Virus record (IMG/VR): IMGVR_UViG_3300032221_000120
Coordinates: 1-31,634 of that record
DNA: 31,634 nucleotides
Source: a virus
Taxonomy: Duplodnaviria > Caudoviricetes
Reading direction: 5' to 3' (one strand)
The notes beneath the pieces are model-generated. The model had not been told where the DNA came from and did no database searches. It worked only from the letters and a program-made list of their open reading frames with translations. Of the stretch, positions 1,423 to 30,522 are shown one piece after another. A program made the position numbers and the translations under genes. Position 1 is the first letter of the stretch; each line of letters starts with the position of its first letter.

Positions 1423-2802
1423 TCAGTAAGCCGCGACCGGCACCCGCCGGCCATCTTTGATCGAAACAGTCACAGGCGCAGTGCGCGTATGGCCGACCAG
1501 CCCCCAGATGTTCTTGCGGTCCTCGCGCTGCGGCCCCTCAATGTGGATCGGCACCGCACCCGTCAGGAATTCAATGCCGGCGGCAAAGAAGGGCAGATTG
1601 TCGGAGTAGGAAGCGTCGCACGCCTTCTCCCAAAGCTCGCCCTCCAGGAACATGCACGCGCCCTTGCATAGCTGAAGGACCGGGCAGTCGGCGCACTCCT
1701 GCCGCTTGCTCCAATGCGTCGACGTATTCAGCCGCACCTCGCTTAGCCGATCCACAGTGCCGATCTTGTGGCTTTCGCCATTTGGCGCCTTGGCGACCGG
1801 AGACACGTTCTGGCAAGTGATCACCGCGCCCTTCAAGGTCACGGCAACCGTGTCGCTCCGATCCATGCCGCACTTCTGGCCCAGCGCCGTCGCAGGCCGG
1901 CCCTTGCGGATGCTGTCCACAAAGTCGCCAATCTTCTGCTTGGCGATCATGAGGTTAGAGGCGCCACCAGATCGAACCTCGGCAAAGGCCCGGCGCCGAT
2001 ACTCCATGTGCTCGTCGGCTTTAAGCATGGAGGCAAGGCCGCCTTCGTCGTATGGGTCAACAAAGGAGCCTTCGCCAATAGGCACATCGGCGCCGAAGCG
2101 GTCGACAAACCACGCCTGGACGCCAGCGCGAGACTGGTTGTCTCGGTGAATCATGGAATTGAAGCTGATCCGATTCTGCGGGCGCAGCCGCGCATACAAA
2201 TCACGGATCGCTGCCGCCCTTTCAGGATCGTCGAACGGGTCTGGCCCGCGCGTCGCTTGCCCTGGACCATCGTGCGAGATACCAACATGGAAGCCCAGCC
2301 GGTCCAGCCATTCGTTGATCTCAGGCGTGAGCAGCGAGCCGTTCGTAATGACAAGGAGTCGGGCGTCAGGCATGCGAAGCCGAAGCTGCTCAGCAAGCGG
2401 CTTGAGGGTCTTCCAATAAGCAAATGGCTCGCCGCCCCAGAATTCAATCTCGAGCCCCTTGCCCCGCCCATTCAGTCCCTTCATGTCAAACCAGGACGGC
2501 AGCTTCGCCAAGAACGGCTCAATCTCTCTAAGGCCCGCGTCCACCTCATGCGGCACAAAGCGCTGGGAACAGTAGGTGCAGGAATAATTGCAGGACAGGC
2601 CCAAACTGATCTTCAGCGTCTTGATGGCGCCCTTTGAGCCCGGCGCATCCCGCGACACGACCGCTGCTGTTCCCCATGATTGCGATTGCACCTCAGCAAT
2701 CGGCTTGCCATCGGCCCACGTAAATTCGCTGGACTGATTGTCATAAAGTAACCGGACGAGAGAATTGTCCGGCCTTTGTGCCACTATCGAAAACTTCGCC
2801 AT
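1423..2802 (-). CDS. Radical SAM enzyme with C-terminal SPASM domain
   Basis: CNYSCTYC (CxxxCxxC), FWGGEPF, ITNG, ISHDG; SPASM cysteines C-x13-G-x4-C ... C-x2-C-x5-C-x3-C-x11-C. Confidence 0.93.
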   Translation of the reverse strand: MAKFSIVAQRPDNSLVRLLYDNQSSEFTWADGKPIAEVQSQSWGTAAVVSRDAPGSKGAIKTLKISLGLSCNYSCTYCSQRFVPHEVDAGLREIEPFLAKLPSWFDMKGLNGRGKGLEIEFWGGEPFAYWKTLKPLAEQLRLRMPDARLLVITNGSLLTPEINEWLDRLGFHVGISHDGPGQATRGPDPFDDPERAAAIRDLYARLRPQNRISFNSMIHRDNQSRAGVQAWFVDRFGADVPIGEGSFVDPYDEGGLASMLKADEHMEYRRRAFAEVRSGGASNLMIAKQKIGDFVDSIRKGRPATALGQKCGMDRSDTVAVTLKGAVITCQNVSPVAKAPNGESHKIGTVDRLSEVRLNTSTHWSKRQECADCPVLQLCKGACMFLEGELWEKACDASYSDNLPFFAAGIEFLTGAVPIHIEGPQREDRKNIWGLVGHTRTAPVTVSIKDGRRVPVAAY

Positions 2803-2804
2803 GC

Positions 2805-3725
2805 TTACCCCACGTTTGCGATGAAGTCCGTCTCGCCCGGCCAGTTGCGCCAGCCGACTTTGACTCGGACCTTGCTTCCTGGCTCCAGCCCCAGAGCGCC
2901 AACACGAAAGCTGGCGCGACCCTGGGTCACTTTCGCCCGGAGATTAGGGCAGTAGCCGTCCACGTCCTCCAGGTAAAGCGTCGAGTTGCAGCGCATATCC
3001 ACCTCGTCCCGCTCGGGGTGCAGGACTTCAAGGTTCACGGTTGCATAAGAATCGGCTGAAATGGTTGGCCCGCTCAAACTGCCGGGTAGGTACGCGTAGG
3101 TGATCCCATTGGCCACGAAAGACGTGATCCGAATGCGCGGCCAAATATCAGCGGGAGAAGGCGTGCCTTGCACCCGCGCGATTGTCGGCCCGAGATTATG
3201 GTGATAGCCCATGGCTTCGCTGTACTTCACAAAAATTGTGCAGTCCTCAAGCGGGCTGTCGGCGTAAGGCTGGCAAATCGTCAAAACAGAATTCGCTTGC
3301 CGATCCGCGTAAAGCAGGTCTTTACTCGCGCGGGCTGGTAGGTACTCGAGCGCTCGATTGAATGGCGCATGAAAGCCGCCGTCAAACCTGTCTAGGAACA
3401 TCCAAGCGGCCCGATCCGAGCAAGCTGCGACCCCATTCATTTCAGGTTCGAACCGCCAGCAAACTTCGTCACAAAACCGGAAGCGACGGCTCTTGTCATT
3501 ATTTCCAGAGAAGATGTGGCCGGGATAAATCAGACTTCTGTCACGAGAAACCTGCCCGAAAGGAACGCCGTGCCGCTGGAGGTCAGCTTCAATCTGCTCG
3601 CTTGACGCCATGGTGCCGCTCGCCCCATCAGTCACCTCGAAGCTACGAACAGTGACCATTCCTTCTTTGATGACAAACGAATACGCCTTGGTCGTAGGAA
3701 CGAAATTGACTGTGTAAATCTTCAT
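2805..3725 (-). CDS. Hypothetical protein, 306 aa, partner of the radical SAM enzyme; beta-rich (Ig-like?) C-terminus
   Basis: GAGGAG RBS; ends 2 nt before the rSAM start; alternating beta-strand pattern in the last ~90 aa. Confidence 0.75.
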   Translation of the reverse strand: MKIYTVNFVPTTKAYSFVIKEGMVTVRSFEVTDGASGTMASSEQIEADLQRHGVPFGQVSRDRSLIYPGHIFSGNNDKSRRFRFCDEVCWRFEPEMNGVAACSDRAAWMFLDRFDGGFHAPFNRALEYLPARASKDLLYADRQANSVLTICQPYADSPLEDCTIFVKYSEAMGYHHNLGPTIARVQGTPSPADIWPRIRITSFVANGITYAYLPGSLSGPTISADSYATVNLEVLHPERDEVDMRCNSTLYLEDVDGYCPNLRAKVTQGRASFRVGALGLEPGSKVRVKVGWRNWPGETDFIANVG

Positions 3726-3833
3726 GCCGGAATCTCCTCTGTGACCGAGATCACTCGTTTGTGCGCAGTCAAAACACTATTCATGCCGATGCCTTCGGCG
3801 AAGAAAGTCTCAGCACTCTTGCTGTACAAGGCG

Positions 3834-4877
3834 TCAGCCGCAATCGCACGCCCCACCTGCGCAGTTGCAGGCCGTCAGCGACAAGGTGCCGTTCAGGCGG
3901 ATGGTTCCTCCATCGTCGTACAGCGCGTAACCGCCAGCCAGTCCATACCCGTTGCAGTTAGTCCCACCTACTCCACCGCAATTGGTCACCGCATTGAAGA
4001 AATAGTCATGCAGCCACCCATAGGCCGACGAAGCCATCAAGCCATCGTTGCGCGTGTATGAGATGTAGGTGCCAGCGCCGCCAAGAAAGCCGATCAGGTT
4101 ACTATTGGCGTGGATGTACTTGATGCCGTTCGGCGACTCGTCGTCGAGCATCTCAATCCATGAGGACGCGCCATTGCCTTCCCACACGCGCAAACGGGCG
4201 TTCTGAATCCAGAGGTTGCCAGTGATGGTGTCACCAGCACGGTTCGCAGGGGTGTAGCCCAGCCCGCTCGAGACGTCGGCTGCAGTTAGTGACACCGCCC
4301 CAGAGCGTCCATTGAATGACGCGACGATGCTCGGGTTTGCCGAGATGCCTGTGATCCTGCCTTTCGCATCAACGGTCACATTTGCCGCTTGATATGTGCC
4401 GGGCGTCACAGGGGTATTCGCCAAGGTCAAGGCGATGTTGGCATTGGCGCTCCCGTTGAACGACGCAGAGCCCGTGGCATCGCCAGTCAGGGCAATGTTC
4501 CTAGAGGTCTGGAGCGTAGTGGCGGTCGCGGCATTGCCGGTGATGTTCCCAGGCACTTCGCCGCTAGCGTTCCTTACCGGCACAGTATTGGCCGTAGTAC
4601 CAGTGTTGGCGTGGTAGCCATCCACCATGTCCGAGTTCACAGCCAAGTTCGCCGAGCCCGCGACATTGGCGATCTCGAGCCAAGTCGGCACCGTGTCCTT
4701 CAGCATGTAGAGCTTGTTCTGGTCCGTGCGGAAGCACGTCATGCCGACCACCAATCCGGTCGTCGGAAACGCGGTGCCAGAGAAATTGCTCTTCAGCGCA
4801 TCGTCGCGGTCCAGCAGCTTTTGCCGGCTTGCCGAGAGCGAGTCAGTAGCTGGAATGTCGGGATAGCTCTGAGCCAT
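3834..4877 (-). CDS. Tail fibre protein with Cys-rich C-terminal tip
   Basis: Fibre shaft motifs ITGNAATATTLQTSRNIALTGDATGSASFNGS, PGTY..VTVDAKGRIT, VASFNGRSGAVSL, LGYTPANRAGDTITGNL; ends TACNCAGGACDCG; GGAGG RBS. Confidence 0.88.
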   Translation of the reverse strand: MAQSYPDIPATDSLSASRQKLLDRDDALKSNFSGTAFPTTGLVVGMTCFRTDQNKLYMLKDTVPTWLEIANVAGSANLAVNSDMVDGYHANTGTTANTVPVRNASGEVPGNITGNAATATTLQTSRNIALTGDATGSASFNGSANANIALTLANTPVTPGTYQAANVTVDAKGRITGISANPSIVASFNGRSGAVSLTAADVSSGLGYTPANRAGDTITGNLWIQNARLRVWEGNGASSWIEMLDDESPNGIKYIHANSNLIGFLGGAGTYISYTRNDGLMASSAYGWLHDYFFNAVTNCGGVGGTNCNGYGLAGGYALYDDGGTIRLNGTLSLTACNCAGGACDCG

Positions 4878-4885
4878 GATGCCTC

Positions 4886-6433
4886 CTAATACCCAATCGC
4901 GGACCAGCTTACGGTGCCGGCCACCGCAGTCGCAGGGTTTGACGCTTGATAGAGCCGGACAAAAAAGCTGGTCGAGGTGATTGCAGAGATGGACGGGATA
5001 GCAAGCGAAGCACCGGCTGTCACCGTCACCTGAACCTCGGGCGGGACTGAATAGACCCGGTTAAATGAAATGGTCAGGCCGCCCGTTCCTACAGCGCTGG
5101 TGCCACGGTCGTGCAAGTCCTGAACGTCAGTCGTGGTTTTCGCCTGGATCACGGAGATGTCGGCATTCGAGCCATTCGACGGCTCCGTCACGATCCCGAT
5201 GAGTGCGTTCTGGAAGCGGTAGTCGCCGGGCAGGAATTGTTTCATCTCGCTGTAGCCTTCCGGGTGGCGTGTCGCCACGATCTTCAGAAAGTCAGCGAGG
5301 GTGATCGCAGCATTACGAATGGAGATGTCGCCATAGACCCCATTCGCGTTCCGAAGCAGCGCCTCTCGAAGCCCCAGCAGGGTCAGCGATAGCTTGGAGA
5401 TCGCGGTGCTCCTGACCTCCGCAATGCTGAACGACTCCGCATTGGCCTGGAGCCAGTTGATGAAGTCCGAGTAGGTTTCGACAAACGCCAGAAGCTCGGG
5501 CTCGACATTTTCGATGCTGCCGCTCCTGCCTTCGGCAAAGGCCAAGAGCGATGAGCGCAGAACACTGATGCTGCTGGAGTCGCTGTCGGCGATACTGAAA
5601 GTTTCTGAGAAGCTGCGCAAGAACGTCAGGTCGCTATCAAGCGATTCCGAAAGGCTTAGAGCACTGTCCCACAGGCGCTGAAAGATCACCTGCCAGACCA
5701 GCGCTTCGCTGACCGCAAAGACCTCGGCGAAGCCCTTGAAGGCTTGTGCAGCGCGCCCACTCAGCAACCCAAGCGTCTCCGCTTCCATGCGCAGGAATGC
5801 GGTGGCCCGCTGACTCTGCTCCGCAAGCGTGAACAGGCTGGAGAAAGGCTGCGTGGTGCTGTTTCCCAAGCCCTCGGAGACCACCAGAGCCTCGGCAAAG
5901 CTGCGGAAGAACGAGAGCGCGACGGTCGCAGCTTCCTGAATCGGGAGCGGCTCATTGGCGTTGCGCAGAAAGGTGGCCACCTCAGAGAACACCTCTGCGA
6001 CAGCCAATGTCTCGGCGGAGTTGCGCTCGATGGCAGAGGTGTCTGCGTCAAGCGTAAGCCAAGCCTCAGACAGCGCCTTAGAAGGGCTTGTGTCCTTGGT
6101 CTCCACAAAGTCAAACGACTCACCGACATCATTAAGCCAGTTCGCCAAGTCCGAGTAGGTCTCGACGAAAGACAAGCTCTCTGAAGCATTCAGCGCCCAT
6201 GATGCAACGTCCGCATAGACCGATGCTGTTGCGAACGCCTCGGCAAAAGACGATTGGAGATCGCGAGTACCAAGCGGAGCGAATGTCGGGGCGGTGTCCT
6301 CTTCTAAGATAGACCACTCATAAGCGGTGGCGGTCTCCCAGGTACGAAGGCTCGCACGCTGGTCGTTCCAGTCCCACGCAGACCCCACCCAAGTGAAAGC
6401 CTGGGTGGGGGTTTGAGTGATCGAGACAGCCAT
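4886..6433 (-). CDS. Minor tail / virion structural protein with degenerate internal repeats
   Basis: Position in the tail module; recurring E-x-[LF]-x-[FVL]-x-E units; C-terminal small beta domain (TISFNRVYSVPPEVQVT...VSWSAIGY) typical of tail proteins. Confidence 0.7.
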   Translation of the reverse strand: MAVSITQTPTQAFTWVGSAWDWNDQRASLRTWETATAYEWSILEEDTAPTFAPLGTRDLQSSFAEAFATASVYADVASWALNASESLSFVETYSDLANWLNDVGESFDFVETKDTSPSKALSEAWLTLDADTSAIERNSAETLAVAEVFSEVATFLRNANEPLPIQEAATVALSFFRSFAEALVVSEGLGNSTTQPFSSLFTLAEQSQRATAFLRMEAETLGLLSGRAAQAFKGFAEVFAVSEALVWQVIFQRLWDSALSLSESLDSDLTFLRSFSETFSIADSDSSSISVLRSSLLAFAEGRSGSIENVEPELLAFVETYSDFINWLQANAESFSIAEVRSTAISKLSLTLLGLREALLRNANGVYGDISIRNAAITLADFLKIVATRHPEGYSEMKQFLPGDYRFQNALIGIVTEPSNGSNADISVIQAKTTTDVQDLHDRGTSAVGTGGLTISFNRVYSVPPEVQVTVTAGASLAIPSISAITSTSFFVRLYQASNPATAVAGTVSWSAIGY

Positions 6434-6934
6434 CTAGTGCTGCCTCCGCGCACCGCTTCGGATCATCGAGACAGTTGCCGCGCTGACCAGGAAGCGTTTA
6501 GCGAGTGCCGCGCCAGACTCGGTTGAGGCGCGGATGAGATCGGCTTGCGCGTCAGTCAGCTTCGAGTTGTAGTGCTTCTGACCCTGCCGCGAAGGACTCT
6601 TGTAGCCGCGAGCCTGCCGGCCCTTGGCCACCATGTCGCGCATGTTGTCGCCCTGGGAACCAAGGCGCAAATGAGCCGGATTGCAGCACGCGCGGTTATC
6701 GCAGGTGTGCATCACCGACATGCCGGCGGAGATCGGGCCACAAACAAGGAAGTACGAGACACGGTGAGCGCGGAAGACTGCGGTCTTCATGTTCTCATCG
6801 CGCCCAGCAAACTGCCCGTAGCCTTTAGTAGTGCGTGAGGCAGTCCACGGCCAGCAAGCATTAGTGCCCGCTGACCGATCCACCTTTTCCCAGAACAACC
6901 TCGCGTTAAGGTTGTGCATGACGCAAAGGCTCAC
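6434..6934 (-). CDS. Free-standing HNH homing endonuclease (HNH_3-like) with C-terminal HTH
   Basis: FWEKVD..CWPW..GYG..AHRVSY..VMHTCDNRACCNPAHLRLGSQGDNMRDM; C-terminal SKLT..IR..LAKRFLVS HTH; start is GTG 6934 or ATG 6919. Confidence 0.93.
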   Translation of the reverse strand: MSLCVMHNLNARLFWEKVDRSAGTNACWPWTASRTTKGYGQFAGRDENMKTAVFRAHRVSYFLVCGPISAGMSVMHTCDNRACCNPAHLRLGSQGDNMRDMVAKGRQARGYKSPSRQGQKHYNSKLTDAQADLIRASTESGAALAKRFLVSAATVSMIRSGARRQH

Positions 6935-24355: not shown

Positions 24356-27300
24356 TCACTTAAGTGATCCCTTCACGGTTGGGAGAATCAGGGCTTCGAT
24401 GATAGTCCGACCGTTCTCAGTGAACACGCGGTTGACTGCATAGCGCGCGTTCTCCGGCATGACCACTTCTTTCTCCGTCGAGTAAGCAGCCAGCGTGTCG
24501 CCAATCCAAAGCCCTTTGACACCTATTGTGGTGACAAGGCGCATCTCGACACTCATGCCGGACCCATAGCCGCCCGACTCTCCGGTAGATTCAAATTGCG
24601 GTGACTGGATGATATCGCCTGACTGCAGCGCCTGAATCTGCTTTAGCGATCCACCGGAGATGCTCATCATGCGCCGAAGCTGCGTGCCTTCAGGCAAAGG
24701 CAAGATGCCCGCGTGCATAGCCTCTGACACCTTCACAATATCGCTGGTAATCTCGCCCTTATTGCGCATCTTGTCGTTCGCGCCATAAGCCCAATTGGTC
24801 GAGTATTTATGAATCCCGTCTTGCACGGATTTCGGCAAAGCCTTTGCGTGCGTGTTGTGCTGCTCCTTCACATGCTCAGGCAGCTTCCCTTTCCAAGCGC
24901 CCTTTGCCGTGTAAGCGGACTTGACCGTTGCGGCATCGGTCTTTCCGAGCAGCACAAATGAAGCCGCTTTATTGTGGGCTGCAACGGCGGATGCTTGAGA
25001 CGTCTTGACTGGGGGAAAATGCTCTGAGTGCGCCGCGATGGCGATGCTTGGTGAGAGCGCGGCAGCAATAGGCGGGGCGTTCTTGTGAACGCCTGCCTTG
25101 GGACGTGGTGGGAATAGCTGGACCTCAAGTTCCTGAATCAAGTCCTGTTTGAATTGCGTCAGCTTTTGGCTTTGCTGAGAAAACTTGTCGTAGGACTTGA
25201 GGTTTGCGAGGTCGCCATTGCGCGCGAATTGGTAGAGCACCTCCGCGTGGTGCTCGTTCTCCTTCTTCACTGCTTGATTGGAGGTGACAAAGACCGGCTT
25301 GGTGGCAAGCTTTGTCGTGTCGAGTTTTACCGCCGTCGCGCCGGGAACCTGGGGAGGCTTCGGGATGGGCTTGTTCTGAGAGACAAGCAGGTCAGCAGCG
25401 TCGGCAGGTGCCATGCCGCCGAAAAGGGCCTTGTGGGAATTGGCCTTCTGGCCCGCCGCGACCTTCTCGCCTATCCCCAGGGCTGCCAGGGCGTCATTGG
25501 CAAGCTTTGCCTGCTTGTGGCCATAGGTATTGGAACCGAAGTTCATCCCAAGGATGGCCTTCGCATCTCCTGCCATTGCGGCAGCCTGAATCTGGTCAAC
25601 CTTCTTGTTGTGGCTCGGCGCGTTTGTGTTTGAGGCTGGCAGCTTGCTTGAATCGAAGATCGGCATGCTCGGCATGTTTGCCGTCTTGGCGCCGGGTTGA
25701 GGCACCGCCTTTGGAGTGAGCGCGTCGCTGTTGATCTTGGCCTGCAGAGCAGTGGCTTTTTTAGAGTCCAGGTCTTCCAGAAGCTTCTGGGCATAGGCGT
25801 TAAAGTTCTTTGCGTTTAGGCCGGCTCCTTGGATCGTCAAGCCCATCACTTTGTCAGCTTGGAGTATGGAGTTCAGCCCTTCAGCATCGCCCGCTCCGTA
25901 CATCTTGGTGGCTAAGTTGCTCAGCTTTCCCCACGCCTCGGCTGCACCAGGAACGGTGTCTTTGAAGACCGGCTTCGGCATAGTCGTGCTTGCGGCAGGA
26001 GCCGGAGCGGAGGTGGTGGTGGGTGCAGCAGCAGCGGGCGTCCGTTCGGTCGCGGGCTTGGGCGCGGATGCGTCAAGCGCAGAGAGAACCTTTGGCGGTG
26101 CGCCCTTAAGGGTTTTGAGGCTGTAGCCACCCTTCTTCTTTTCGGATTCCAGTTTTGCTGCGGCGTTCTTTGCTTCAATCGTGTTGGCATATTCCTTGAC
26201 CGTAACCGTTCCATCGGTCCCGATCTTGCCCCAATGAGTGGCGACCTTGTTGCCGCTCACACTCACCGCCCAGAATTTTGAGTGCCCTGGATTAGTGTTT
26301 TGGTAGATCGTCTGCAACACCGGCTTTGCCGGCTCAGAGGCTGACGCCTGGGCGGGTGCTTGCGGTGTCGGTGCTGTTCCCATCATCCATTGCGGAATGG
26401 ACGCCTCGGCCTTTGCCATAGCCTTTGCGCTGGCCAAGACGTCTGCCTTGCGCGCGATGATCTTTGCCGCCAGCGCCGCCTTCTGCGCCTCGTTACCGGG
26501 GCCATAGGAGGCGACCATTTTCTGTATGGTCGCGTCGTCGATGGCTTCCAGCTTCTTGGCGCTCTCCACAATCTGCGAAGCCGTCATGGAGCCGTAGACG
26601 GACCAAGCCTGCTGGTTAGCAGGAAGGCCCGACACAGGCCCGCGCAGTGAATTGAATTCCACCGCCTTGGTGCCGAAGGCATCTCCCTTCGGGGCGCCTT
26701 GCGCGCGATAGAGCAGGGCGCCGCCTGGATCAATGTTGATCGCCTTGCCATCGGCACCAATGACGGTGTTGTCCTTCGAGAGCCCGATGACGTCATAGTT
26801 GGCAAGCCATGCGTGCACCGCGAAGTCGGCCTGCGCTGCTGCAAGGTGCGCTTGGGATGAGCCGAGCGCTTTCACGTCGCCGATCACCTTGGACGCAACA
26901 CCGATTCCGCCGCCATACTGGCCTTCGAGATCAACCAGCATCATGTCTGGGGCGCCAGCGCCCACCGCCTGCATCAGCTTGGCGGCCAGCACCTCGTTCT
27001 TGGCCTGCTCCGTCGCGGGCGGATTGTTCGAGCCTTTGACGATCCATTTGTTGCCATTGGCGTCTTGGTACAGGCCGCCCGGATTGCTACCACCGGGCTT
27101 TGCACCGACCTTGGTCAGGTCTGACAGCTTCGCCGGCCCGCTGATAGCAGCAGCGGTCGCGGCAGCCTTTGGCTGGGCCTTCTTTTCGGTCAGTAGATGC
27201 GCAGCGTATTGGTGAAGCTGCGCGTTCCATTTGACGTGCGACGTCACCTTCTGCCCGGACGCCCATTTCTCCTTGGCGTGCTGCAGGTTCATCACCGAGT

Positions 27301-28432
27301 CGTCCAGCGCCCATAGGTTGCCAGCCTGCGCGATTGCGTACATCGCATTCGCCTTCTTTTGGTAGCCGGAGTTTGCGCCTGTCAGGCCGCCCGCGATGGT
27401 GGGAGGCATGGTGATCCCGTCCGCACCCATCGTCTTCCATTGGCCACCAAGCGGAGAACCAGACTCCCAGCGAGGTTGCCCCTGCGAGTGATGGCCTTTG
27501 CCTCCTGGCTTCGCGCCTGCCGCGTCCTTCTTGACCGCGCCATTCATTTCGCTGAGCAGGTCTTGCAGGATCGCCTTGTCATGCTCGCGGTTAAGCATCT
27601 GCTTGGCGTTGCTGAGCGGAGCCAGACGCACCGCCTGCGACTCCCAGCCCATGTCCTTTGGCGTGCCGCCGACACGCTGCGCGATGAACATGCGCGCTTT
27701 ACTGGTGTCGCGTTCGTAATCACCAAGCACGCCAGTGATGCGCACCTTTAGCCCGGTCTCTTCGTAGGCTTCCTTGATCGCGTTCGCCTGCAAAGACAGC
27801 CCAGGCTCGGCGGTCCCCTTCGGGTACGTGTTCACATAGCCACCGAAAGAATTGGTTGGGCGAGTGAGCCAGACCCGACCATCAGCCTCGAGGATCAGGA
27901 CGCCCGCGCCGGTCTTCTTGGTCGGGTGCGGTTCGAAAGGCACGTCCGCGTCAAGCTTCGGATTCTGGCCCGGCACCTTTGCCCAGCCGTCCGTGGTGGT
28001 GGGAGCCTTCCAAGAGCGGAGCGCGACGCCATTGAGCGCTTCGGGTGTTTCGCTGCCAGGGGTGAAGGTCGCGGTCTGCTTGCCATCCGCCCAGGTGGAA
28101 GCCGGGCTGGCCTTGTTCGGATAGTCGATGGTGACCGGCTGGCCTTTGTCGTTTGCCTTTGGGTGGGGCTTGGCGCCCTTCGGCGCTGGCTTAGGCCCTG
28201 GTGCGGCAGACCCAAAGAGCGAGCCGCTGTAGCCGCCCACAGCCGGCCCAGCAGAGGTTCCTTTCGGCGCGAATTGCCCACCCTTGTTGCTGCCGGCAGG
28301 CCAGCGATTCCAGTTGGCTTTGTCGAGGACGCATGCCGGATTGCTCTTCGCTTTAAGCAGTGCGAGACTGGCCCGACCAAGCGCGAGGCTCGCGCTAATT
28401 TCCGCCACGAGAGAGTCTTGATCTTCAGCCAC
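24356..28432 (-). CDS. Multi-enzyme (polyvalent-type) phage protein: Nudix hydrolase + PI3K/HipA-like kinase + WGR domain + VIP2-like ADP-ribosyltransferase
   Basis: Nudix box PKG...KEAYEETGL; kinase GSNPGG..WIVK..NEVLA..WLANYDVIG..DN..IDPG; WGR SKFW..HWGKIGTDG..EKKKGGY; ART LRR..FEST..EKEVVM; GTG start with GGAGG RBS. Confidence 0.85.
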   Translation of the reverse strand: MAEDQDSLVAEISASLALGRASLALLKAKSNPACVLDKANWNRWPAGSNKGGQFAPKGTSAGPAVGGYSGSLFGSAAPGPKPAPKGAKPHPKANDKGQPVTIDYPNKASPASTWADGKQTATFTPGSETPEALNGVALRSWKAPTTTDGWAKVPGQNPKLDADVPFEPHPTKKTGAGVLILEADGRVWLTRPTNSFGGYVNTYPKGTAEPGLSLQANAIKEAYEETGLKVRITGVLGDYERDTSKARMFIAQRVGGTPKDMGWESQAVRLAPLSNAKQMLNREHDKAILQDLLSEMNGAVKKDAAGAKPGGKGHHSQGQPRWESGSPLGGQWKTMGADGITMPPTIAGGLTGANSGYQKKANAMYAIAQAGNLWALDDSVMNLQHAKEKWASGQKVTSHVKWNAQLHQYAAHLLTEKKAQPKAAATAAAISGPAKLSDLTKVGAKPGGSNPGGLYQDANGNKWIVKGSNNPPATEQAKNEVLAAKLMQAVGAGAPDMMLVDLEGQYGGGIGVASKVIGDVKALGSSQAHLAAAQADFAVHAWLANYDVIGLSKDNTVIGADGKAINIDPGGALLYRAQGAPKGDAFGTKAVEFNSLRGPVSGLPANQQAWSVYGSMTASQIVESAKKLEAIDDATIQKMVASYGPGNEAQKAALAAKIIARKADVLASAKAMAKAEASIPQWMMGTAPTPQAPAQASASEPAKPVLQTIYQNTNPGHSKFWAVSVSGNKVATHWGKIGTDGTVTVKEYANTIEAKNAAAKLESEKKKGGYSLKTLKGAPPKVLSALDASAPKPATERTPAAAAPTTTSAPAPAASTTMPKPVFKDTVPGAAEAWGKLSNLATKMYGAGDAEGLNSILQADKVMGLTIQGAGLNAKNFNAYAQKLLEDLDSKKATALQAKINSDALTPKAVPQPGAKTANMPSMPIFDSSKLPASNTNAPSHNKKVDQIQAAAMAGDAKAILGMNFGSNTYGHKQAKLANDALAALGIGEKVAAGQKANSHKALFGGMAPADAADLLVSQNKPIPKPPQVPGATAVKLDTTKLATKPVFVTSNQAVKKENEHHAEVLYQFARNGDLANLKSYDKFSQQSQKLTQFKQDLIQELEVQLFPPRPKAGVHKNAPPIAAALSPSIAIAAHSEHFPPVKTSQASAVAAHNKAASFVLLGKTDAATVKSAYTAKGAWKGKLPEHVKEQHNTHAKALPKSVQDGIHKYSTNWAYGANDKMRNKGEITSDIVKVSEAMHAGILPLPEGTQLRRMMSISGGSLKQIQALQSGDIIQSPQFESTGESGGYGSGMSVEMRLVTTIGVKGLWIGDTLAAYSTEKEVVMPENARYAVNRVFTENGRTIIEALILPTVKGSLK

Positions 28433-29412: not shown

Positions 29413-30522
29413 TTAGCCCTCCTGAAGGTCGGACGCTTCCCACATGCGAATCACCATAGTGCAGCGGCAATTCGGGTGGGCTGGTGGCATGGACATAGGC
29501 CCTTTTGGCGTAGCGAATGGCTGCCCCTGCTTCACGCCCACCTTCGGGTTCAAGCGCGGGATCGGCGCGCATATTTCGCACAGCCGCTCGTCGCGAGCAA
29601 CAATCCATTGCCGACGCACCAATGACTCGGAGACCTTGCCGGACTCAATCGCCTGCCGCCACGCTTCCTGGATGCCCATGTTGTTGGCCCGGATCGCCTC
29701 CGTGCGCGCGATGGTCCTGGCCCTAAACGCCTTGTACTTGCGCGCATAGGCCGCGACCATCTTGTCGATCTGCTCCGGGGTGAGGGGCTTGCTGGTTTGC
29801 ATGGCGCGCTGCAATTGCCCGTCATACCGGAAGTCGCGGAGTCTGCGTTCGGTGATCCCGTCCATGGGCAAGCCATCATCATCAGGCCGAAAGACCTGGG
29901 TGCCGTTCACCTTGTCCGGCTTGCTGCCGACCGAGTAACCGCCGCCTGTCCTGCGCTGGTGGAACGTCTCAAGCTCGCGACGGTAGTTCGCGACGGCTTG
30001 GGACTGCTTCTCCGTGAGCCCCACCACCTGCTTGATCTGGCGCGCGACGTCCTTTGGGTTTGCACCCTCGTTCATCCCTGCGATCAAGTAAGTGCGGATG
30101 CCCTCGCGCGTTGAGTCGCTGATCTGGCGGATCAGCCCGAGCGAGTAGGTTTGGAGCCACCGGATCAAGGTCGGGTTCAGCCGGTCAAAGGCGAAGGCGG
30201 CCCCTGTGACGCGGGGGGCGATAAGCCCGGCTGTCAGGGCGCCGGCTGAGTAGACCCCGTCCTGCAGCGCGTCGGTCGTGGCGGCCATGGCAGGCACGGC
30301 GGCCTCCATGGAGAGCAGCGCCACCACGCGGGCTATATCGCCGGACTCCAAGGCGGCCACCAGGGCATCAATAGGTACCGCGTCGCCCATAGCCTCGAGC
30401 CCCTGGGCGACGGCCTTAGCCAGCCTGGGCTCGAGCCGGGCGATCAGTGCCTCGAGCGCCTCGGACCCGCCTGCCTTCTGCACGGGGCGAAGGCGATGGC
30501 TCGGCTGCAAAAAAAGTGTCAT
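29413..30522 (-). CDS. Head morphogenesis protein (Mu gpF / SPP1 gp7-like, MuF)
   Basis: RARTIARTE, RRQWIVARDERLCEIC, PPAHPNCRC. Confidence 0.92.
   Translation of the reverse strand: MTLFLQPSHRLRPVQKAGGSEALEALIARLEPRLAKAVAQGLEAMGDAVPIDALVAALESGDIARVVALLSMEAAVPAMAATTDALQDGVYSAGALTAGLIAPRVTGAAFAFDRLNPTLIRWLQTYSLGLIRQISDSTREGIRTYLIAGMNEGANPKDVARQIKQVVGLTEKQSQAVANYRRELETFHQRRTGGGYSVGSKPDKVNGTQVFRPDDDGLPMDGITERRLRDFRYDGQLQRAMQTSKPLTPEQIDKMVAAYARKYKAFRARTIARTEAIRANNMGIQEAWRQAIESGKVSESLVRRQWIVARDERLCEICAPIPRLNPKVGVKQGQPFATPKGPMSMPPAHPNCRCTMVIRMWEASDLQEG

Follow-up and report, generated by a model that had tools for sequence, protein, structure and literature searches.

A radical SAM/SPASM enzyme tightly linked to Asn-Cys-rich tail-fibre tips: a candidate fibre maturation system of tailed phages

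The 31,634-nucleotide viral record IMGVR_UViG_3300032221_000120 (Duplodnaviria; Caudoviricetes), hereafter the window, was found to carry a three-gene cassette in which a tail-fibre gene with a Cys-rich tip is followed by genes for a 306-amino-acid (aa) partner protein and a radical S-adenosylmethionine (SAM)/SPASM enzyme. Across related loci the enzyme and proteins carrying a ladder of closely spaced Cys residues are tightly linked in both directions of searching; the system is real and widespread, and apparently undescribed. The enzyme probably converts X-Cys pairs of the fibre end into thioether rings to the preceding Asn, Ala or Asp, with the partner holding or capping the tip; the fibre as substrate and the thioether as bond are both suggested by sequence comparison. 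The window is a 31.6-kb linear record representing about 52% of a viral genome, and the absences reported for it below hold for the window only. The features of the cassette are as follows.

3834-4877, minus strand: tail-fibre protein of 347 aa, the predicted substrate (PHROG tail-fibre matches, operon position)
3834-3983, minus strand: Cys-rich tip, fibre aa 299-347 (Cys positions, alignment to relatives)
3722-3829, minus strand: remnant of a lost Hint-like domain, 35 codons in another frame (end-anchored match to Hint C-termini)
2805-3725, minus strand: partner protein of 306 aa (N-terminal beta-rich domain and C-terminal Big_1/invasin-type immunoglobulin-like (Ig) domain, aa 196-306)
1423-2802, minus strand: radical SAM/SPASM enzyme of 459 aa (PHROG 1802)
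2569-2592, minus strand: CxxxCxxC motif, C71, C75 and C78 (family alignment)
1618-1872, minus strand: seven-Cys SPASM domain (C311, C330, C383; C370, C373, C379, C395), no eighth Cys (family alignment)

A first-pass annotation, made from the letters of the window, had described a fibre with six of its seven Cys residues in about the last 50 aa, followed by the 306-aa open reading frame (ORF) and then by a radical SAM enzyme with a seven-Cys SPASM domain. This arrangement was confirmed by the coordinates and by the Cys map: the fibre Cys residues lie at positions 48, 300, 308, 337, 339, 344 and 346, and the enzyme ORF starts 2 nt past the end of the 306-aa ORF. When Cys residues were placed at random (200,000 draws), the probability of such clustering was 4.5e-5 in the terminal 50 aa and 1.6e-3 when any 50-aa stretch was allowed. 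The tip comprises two isolated Asn-Cys pairs and a short terminal ladder (AC, NC, AC, DC), giving three NC, two AC and one DC in total. Several PHROG tail-fibre families were matched by the fibre (best E 1e-24), its residues 215-347 resembled the trimer regions of gp37, gp34 and gp36 (ESM Atlas, scores 0.90-0.91), and its gene lies downstream of a J-like central fibre within the tail operon. As a tail fibre the protein would be part of the virion, and its tip may bind the receptor. The first-pass annotation had also reported neither a convincing short precursor peptide nor a sulfatase in the window, and this held. A six-frame scan of the window for C[NDA]C together with NC revealed no second Cys-ladder ORF, the sole other match being a 62-codon plus-strand frame overlapping the MuF gene. 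No sulfatase was present among the 32 window ORFs scanned, and no short leader-core precursor with a protease or exporter was found in the window.

Co-occurrence of the enzyme with Cys-rich fibres had been set beforehand as the test by which the first-pass proposal could be refuted, and the proposal was not refuted. In total, 256 loci were collected, giving 257 sequences with the window; the enzyme was matched in 256 of these, the RP12 locus being the one without. A forward test was performed on the 154 loci with at least 4 kb upstream, including the window and three named phages. An initial, loose definition of the tail, which on the opposite strand gave 22 of 52 background matches, was superseded by a strict ladder, for which an ORF of at least 60 aa must contain two C[NDA]C within 10 residues. 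With this definition, a ladder protein was found upstream and on the same strand in 144 of the 154 enzyme loci (139 terminal, five before a Hint-like domain), and in 51 of 55 clusters when the enzymes were grouped at 80% identity. As controls, ladders were scored on the opposite strand (6/154) and downstream (0/154).

The reverse test was performed with the DNA pattern NCNCNCxC followed by TRR, which was matched at 84 loci in viral contigs, 64 of them in-frame ends of ORFs of at least 60 aa. Every in-frame terminal ladder with 1.8 kb or more downstream (57 of 57) had the enzyme behind it, and the remaining seven, with flanks below 1.8 kb, had no enzyme within the flank. The other 20 pattern loci included a single in-frame ladder truncated at the start of its contig, which had the enzyme, and out-of-frame matches with enough flank were followed by the enzyme in 0 of 14 cases. 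The enzymes recovered in this way fell into 28 clusters with 37-59% identity to that of the window, and about a dozen of the contigs were shared with the forward set. Searches with the ladder-Hint junction pattern and with the fibre protein returned the enzyme in 7 of 7 loci and in 13 of 14 loci, respectively, the latter being largely near-copies. The enzyme family as a whole comprised 488 clusters at 50% identity (E up to 1e-30), and the enzyme is encoded by the cultured phages JWF, 2-1 and RSP15.

The residues surrounding the tip Cys were then counted in 92 non-redundant tips of 296. Isolated Cys residues, which lie outside the ladder and hence were not used in selecting the tips, were preceded by Asn in 131 of 147 cases, against a background of 17%; in the forward-set tips alone the proportion was 88 of 99. 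Cys residues in the fibre bodies of the same proteins were preceded by Asn in only 12 of 73 cases. As Asn enrichment at isolated Cys was confined to position i-1, with none at i-3, the signal is that of an adjacent Asn-Cys pair. Within the ladders, whose length ranged from two Cys to more than ten, the preceding residue was Asn in 366, Ala in 37 and Asp in 31 of 492 cases, and the spacing was mostly CxC (a Cys at +2 in 359/398). Gly, one of the acceptors named in the first-pass annotation, was found before none of the 147 isolated tip Cys. On these counts, a more likely acceptor than Gly is the immediate neighbour in front of each Cys, Asn in the first place and Ala or Asp after it.

The enzyme itself was assigned to PHROG 1802 (E 3e-57), with the radical SAM core (PF04055, 30.3 bits against a cut-off of 29.5) and the SPASM domain (TIGR04085, 31.5 bits against a cut-off of 27) both recognised. 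It holds exactly ten Cys (71/75/78 and 311/330/370/373/379/383/395). Among 151 aligned family members, C71, C75 and C78 were invariant in all 142-143 rows with a residue at these positions, each of the seven SPASM Cys was found in 142-147 of 145-149 rows, and 138 of the 151 lacked any Cys between the first two SPASM Cys. An auxiliary cluster I (AuxI) held by three Cys with an open iron site, as in ranthipeptide and sactipeptide synthases, is predicted from this ligand pattern; such a site suits thiol binding and C-S bond formation, and the pattern as a whole fits a thioether-forming SPASM enzyme. The model of the enzyme had a predicted local distance difference test score (pLDDT) of 86, and its top fold matches were ChlB, CteB, anSME and TigE, with similar scores; EpeE was also among the sequence and fold matches. 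Alignment with anSME (4K36/4K37) revealed that the second AuxI Cys of that enzyme is absent, and the Asp that follows its second SPASM Cys, a residue with a role in anSME, is replaced by Gln (105) or His (27) in 149 rows. Formylglycine formation is therefore unlikely. The first-pass annotation had left the choice between thioether formation and Cys oxidation open, and it is the thioether that the ligand pattern favours.

The stretch between the fibre and partner genes was found to hold a trace of a further domain, which had not been picked up in the first-pass annotation. Of 24 aligned fibre relatives, seven exceed the window fibre by about 160 aa, namely the four closest (71-76% identity) and three more. 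Where the ladder ends, in CDC[S/T] for six of these seven, the proteins continue into a Cys (Cys1), a TxxH block (TGDH/TREH) and a Hint-like end, and gp028 of phage JWF is annotated as Hint. The window fibre ends in CDCG, in register with the relatives' junction between CDC[S/T] and the Hint Cys, and its stop codon falls at the Cys1 position. Read in another frame, the 108 nt that follow give 35 residues, which form a gapless alignment with the final 35 residues of the relatives' Hint domains. Alignment scores were 64, 64 and 70 for P0137-P0139 and 55 for P0151 (0 of 1000 shuffles each), and weaker for P0136 (42; 0 of 1000 shuffles), P0150 (42; 1) and P0142 (32; 41). The stop codon of this frame overlaps the partner's ATG (ATGA), as the Hint stop and partner start likewise overlap by 4 nt in the intact relative L355, and the frame includes the partner's AGGAG ribosome-binding site. 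Judged by these alignments, the 108-nt spacer is a remnant of the Hint-like domain that is still fused to the four closest fibre relatives. The simplest history would be a stop at Cys1 and, after it, a deletion which left the ribosome-binding site of the partner intact; viral contigs yielded no DNA locus for the nearest Hint-capped relatives from which the course of mutation could be read.

A sequencing artefact at the fibre end is not favoured. Two contigs' runs, X2 and X3, may be one data set; their contigs follow the window through the spacer as far as position 3805, beyond which the letters read as the relatives' Hint. In a contig from X5, 964 letters stand in place of the window's 542. 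The sole full-length contig, from X1 (depth 14.9), may be the window's own source. No RNA holder is listed for the stretch, and the Hint profile found no remnant in any other locus collected at that stage. In the capped relatives the Hint domain may cut itself off at Cys1 and thereby free the ladder. Fibres without Hint, including that of the window, end in the same register as the Hint junction. As the domain was lost here with a stop at the junction, the Hint appears dispensable. What is conserved as product is a ladder with its C-terminus free, and it is unlikely that a Hedgehog-like ligation is essential.

Some form of partner was encoded in 151 of the 154 forward loci: an Ig-type protein in 122, a helical-type protein (of the JWF gp029 type) in 29, both in none and neither in three. 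The 306-aa partner of the window had no match in Pfam, NCBIfam or PHROG. Its AlphaFold2 model (pLDDT 93.6) consists of a beta-rich domain and an Ig domain, the latter matched with Z about 10 and root-mean-square deviations of 2.1-2.5; full-length structural matches were to uncharacterised phage proteins only, and a Foldseek search against the PDB, in which the N-terminal domain was barely probed, returned Ig-domain matches only. On a quick tree of 71 rows the partner type switched 12 times, with strong branch support forcing at least nine of these switches, and different partner types were carried by enzymes about 90% identical. Since unrelated families are exchanged on near-identical enzymes, the partner is unlikely to be a fixed substrate. 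The partner thus appears near-obligatory but exchangeable, for which a role as chaperone or cap fits better than one as substrate, and the 306-aa protein is probably a chaperone, adaptor or cap for the tip. A complex prediction for the fibre-tip trimer (aa 258-347) with this protein scored 0.00 in both runs, with no controls folded, and was not used either way. Genes for 2-oxoglutarate (2OG)-Fe(II) oxygenases were detected with our own profiles at most 4 kb upstream in 129 of the 154 loci. As none is present in the window cassette, the window represents a minimal form of the module.

Under the proposed mechanism, the 5'-deoxyadenosyl radical would abstract a hydrogen from C-beta or C-alpha of the Asn, Ala or Asp at i-1; a seven- or six-membered ring would be closed by the Cys thiol, which the open iron of AuxI would bind. 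Modification would follow removal of the Hint where one exists; the window phage would encode the ladder end directly, the Hint being a disposable cap and not an essential ligase. The product would be a rigid fibre end, resistant to oxidation and proteases, with a role in adsorption. A wider proposal is put forward more tentatively, and we would not yet lean towards it: that a broad class of tailed phages (siphoviruses, T4-like myoviruses and prophages, with hundreds of enzyme clusters) may finish their receptor-binding fibres by radical chemistry, turning Asn-Cys ladders into stacked adjacent-residue thioether rings, with an optional Hint cap, swappable partners and optional oxygenases that diversify the tip beyond its sequence.

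Several observations weigh against thioether formation on the fibre tip as the function of the module. Ten of the 154 forward loci had no ladder within 4 kb. In L024 the ladder lies 5.3 kb away, and the sequences of L083 and L003 start at the partner gene, leaving the fibre outside the DNA covered; L182, L033, L067, L004 and L137 were also missed. L165 is a real exception, with secretion-type gene surroundings and neither ladder nor partner. The tip of RSP15, the last of the ten, is reduced to NCQC, and the window's own ladder is degenerate in that Asn precedes only three of its six tip Cys. In L177 (1954-4975), which with 3.6 kb upstream fell below the 4-kb cut-off and outside the 154, the partner and enzyme stand behind a Cys-poor 264-aa gene with no ladder in the available sequence. 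The loci are moreover related and many tip positions homologous, so that the motif and linkage counts do not represent independent events. Motifs and sub-threshold Pfam Hint-clan scores (best E 9.5e-6; none for P0136) are the basis of the Hint call, and the family-level Hint profile gives the remnant only E 0.089. For the enzyme, no NCBIfam maturase family was reached (best 47 bits against a cut-off of 400), the maturase equivalogs PapB, SCIFF/CteB, QhpD, TIGR04463, RumMC and others all being far below cut-off among the best 25 of 33 families. Its fold was matched about equally by enzymes of the cyclophane, sulfatase-maturing and thioether types. Given these near-equal matches and the absence of an NCBIfam assignment, the chemistry is not fixed. 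The model also has an N-terminal three-strand sheet (residues 3-29) without the following helices of a recognition element (RRE) for peptides that are made on the ribosome and modified after translation (RiPPs), so that no complete RRE is modelled.

An unlikely alternative is that the ladder is a metal-binding tip, in which CxC pairs from three chains form a site whose metal or Fe-S centre is assembled or delivered by the enzyme. The T4 long tail fibre contains His-x-His iron sites, the present fibre looks trimeric, the dominant CxC spacing would suit such a tip, and co-occurrence of enzyme and ladder is accounted for equally well. The Asn before isolated Cys would be left unexplained, however, and the ladder length is variable, while the fold and ligand set of the enzyme match peptide maturases. 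We regard as similarly unlikely another radical chemistry on the Asn-Cys motifs, such as epimerisation of alternating residues, desaturation or Cys oxidation to formylglycine. An alternating ladder would suit an alternating D/L pattern like that of polytheonamide, and both anSME and EpeE are among the sequence and fold matches. Epimerase-type radical SAM enzymes use a Cys as hydrogen donor, though, and as all ten Cys of the window enzyme are assigned to clusters, with no conserved Cys to spare, an epimerase role is argued against; oxidation of the anSME type is disfavoured by the missing AuxI Cys and replaced Asp already described.

It is less probable still that the enzyme acts elsewhere, on the partner, a host surface molecule or a small molecule, or that it cross-links fibre and partner. 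L177 keeps partner and enzyme without an adjacent ladder, and the partner is slightly more regular (151/154) than a nearby ladder (144/154), but the partner switches between two unrelated families while the enzyme remains about 90% identical, and the enzyme stands behind every terminal ladder with enough flank. Least probable of all, and in our view very doubtful, is a tip that serves as a true RiPP core, modified and then released as a free peptide for superinfection exclusion or antimicrobial action, with the fibre as an oversized leader. Some relatives do carry only ladder proteins of 81-133 aa, sometimes three in tandem, and the frequent upstream 2OG-Fe(II) oxygenases would be in keeping with a modified peptide. 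Against this, the window cassette has no protease or exporter, the Hint is placed to cut after the ladder and not before it, and the module stays within tail operons.

Thioether formation on the fibre tip can be compared with several known systems. Tail-fibre assembly employs autocleaving S74 chaperone domains and Tfa/gp38 proteins, in other words a self-removing C-terminal fibre domain and a partner gene directly behind the fibre. In the window-type system, by contrast, the cap resembles Hint and appears dispensable, the partner has no match to such families, and next in line is a radical enzyme. QhpD is a SPASM enzyme that acts on a protein, QhpC, which is an enzyme subunit. The window enzyme would resemble QhpD and anSME in being a SPASM enzyme that acts on a protein, and differs from anSME, which has the extra AuxI Cys and Asp. 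Ranthionine cross-links have been demonstrated for CrpC/CrpA of Methanococcus voltae (PMC13692751), in which, as described in the accessible part of that source, a seven-Cys SPASM domain with the same ligand order likewise adjoins a protein with a C-terminal Cys-rich repeat region. Unlike the window system, CrpC/CrpA is archaeal, its substrate is not a virion protein, CrpC has an RRE and its target motifs resemble CxxQ/D and not Asn-Cys; neither Hint nor Ig partner is described in the accessible part, and 'phage' and 'tail' do not occur in the text (PMC13692751). The NxxcB/NxxcA pair forms a Cys-to-Asn beta-thioether, and NxxcB takes Asn, Ala, Gln and Asp as acceptors (PMC9389541, accessible part), a tolerance which matches the use of Asn, Ala and Asp before ladder Cys. 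NxxcA is nevertheless a short streptococcal peptide with NxxC spacing (PMC9389541), whereas the window family has adjacent Asn-Cys. Enteropeptin sactipeptides contain a six-membered thiomorpholine ring formed from Cys and one acceptor residue (PMC12395415, accessible part). This ring size would imply neighbouring residues, the spacing proposed for the fibre tip, although enteropeptin is a small antibacterial peptide with a single ring and an N-methylornithine acceptor (PMC12395415).

Tail-collar proteins have been proposed as substrates of neighbouring 2OG-Fe(II) hydroxylases and sulfotransferases in bacterial operons (PMC2938197). This proposal predicts, as is suggested here, fibre-type proteins modified by the enzymes of neighbouring genes; neither a radical SAM enzyme nor a Cys ladder is named in the accessible part of that text (PMC2938197). 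Phage radical SAM genes are mentioned only as annotations or antibiotic-synthesis genes in the accessible parts of PMC5468394 and PMC12801897. No account of the system was found in a literature search that lay outside supplements and mostly outside subscription journals. The chemistry likely has precedent in CrpC, NxxcB and enteropeptin, and the novelty would lie in the biological system. If the proposal is correct, RiPP-type radical chemistry would serve as a step of virion assembly, which was described in no paper found; the fibre sequence would not reveal the chemistry on which host range in these phages would depend, and fibres expressed without the enzyme would be the wrong product. The enzyme family may also offer cyclisation of a two-residue Asn-Cys tag on a protein. 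The window itself adds a natural deletion, from which it is seen that a stop codon at the junction can take the place of the Hint cap, and the system is directly testable because the cultured phages JWF, 2-1 and RSP15 carry the enzyme.

Variations of the ladder genes were observed in several collected loci. Three tandem ladder proteins of 92-167 aa precede one partner and one enzyme in L065 (3549-4473), L062, L072, L081 and L086. L332 (5479-7027), L260 and L262 have small ladder proteins with a very high Cys content (as many as 21 Cys in 133 aa) just downstream of their fibre genes; the fibre immediately upstream in L332 terminates in a chaperone domain of the peptidase S74 type, and the ladder protein occupies a gp38-like adhesin position. 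L258 (8775-11071, on the strand of the pattern match) encodes a 242-aa protein with 28 Cys in a fibre region without an enzyme of the PHROG 1802-type family, and the genes after it resemble, by eye, an oxygenase and a sulfotransferase. In L024 (1582-5343), L083 and L003, five to seven extra genes, their families unassigned, stand between partner and enzyme, the five from L024 being without a Pfam match.

Among distant members of the enzyme family, a fusion to a GNAT-like domain was seen (weak Pfam match in P0391, with a similar C-terminal extension in P0349), P0392 is fused to a second radical SAM domain, and a second gene of radical SAM/SPASM-like type is apparently present in L010 and L257. 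The enzymes of Ralstonia phages RP12 and RP31 (25% identity) belong to a separate cluster of three radical SAM genes and were left out of the counts. In the RP12 locus (L017, 3145-10057), three annotated radical SAM genes lie among virion genes, no ladder was found among ORFs of at least 110 aa, and a 295-aa protein weakly matches the partner fold (E 2.4e-4).

On the minus strand of the window lies the head-tail operon of a siphophage (MuF, capsid, connectors, tail tube, tape measure and J-like central fibre), and past the J-like central fibre the order is 347-aa fibre, 306-aa ORF, 459-aa radical SAM enzyme, deoxynucleoside monophosphate kinase and PHROG 1544 membrane protein. A promoter and terminator scan gave a signal no better than chance. 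The tail protein at 4886-6433 (minus strand), for which no Pfam or PHROG match was found, is Cys-free with short Phe/Ala/Glu repeats, and measures 515 aa here versus 962 aa in the nearest relative, L018 (1049-3937). An HNH homing-type endonuclease (6434-6934, minus strand) sits between two tail genes and is not at that spot in L018. A 1358-aa protein (24356-28432, minus strand) with NUDIX, WGR and weak, below-cut-off ADP-ribosyltransferase-like domains is encoded near the MuF head gene (29413-30522, minus strand), and looks like a multidomain, possibly head-packaged anti-host protein.

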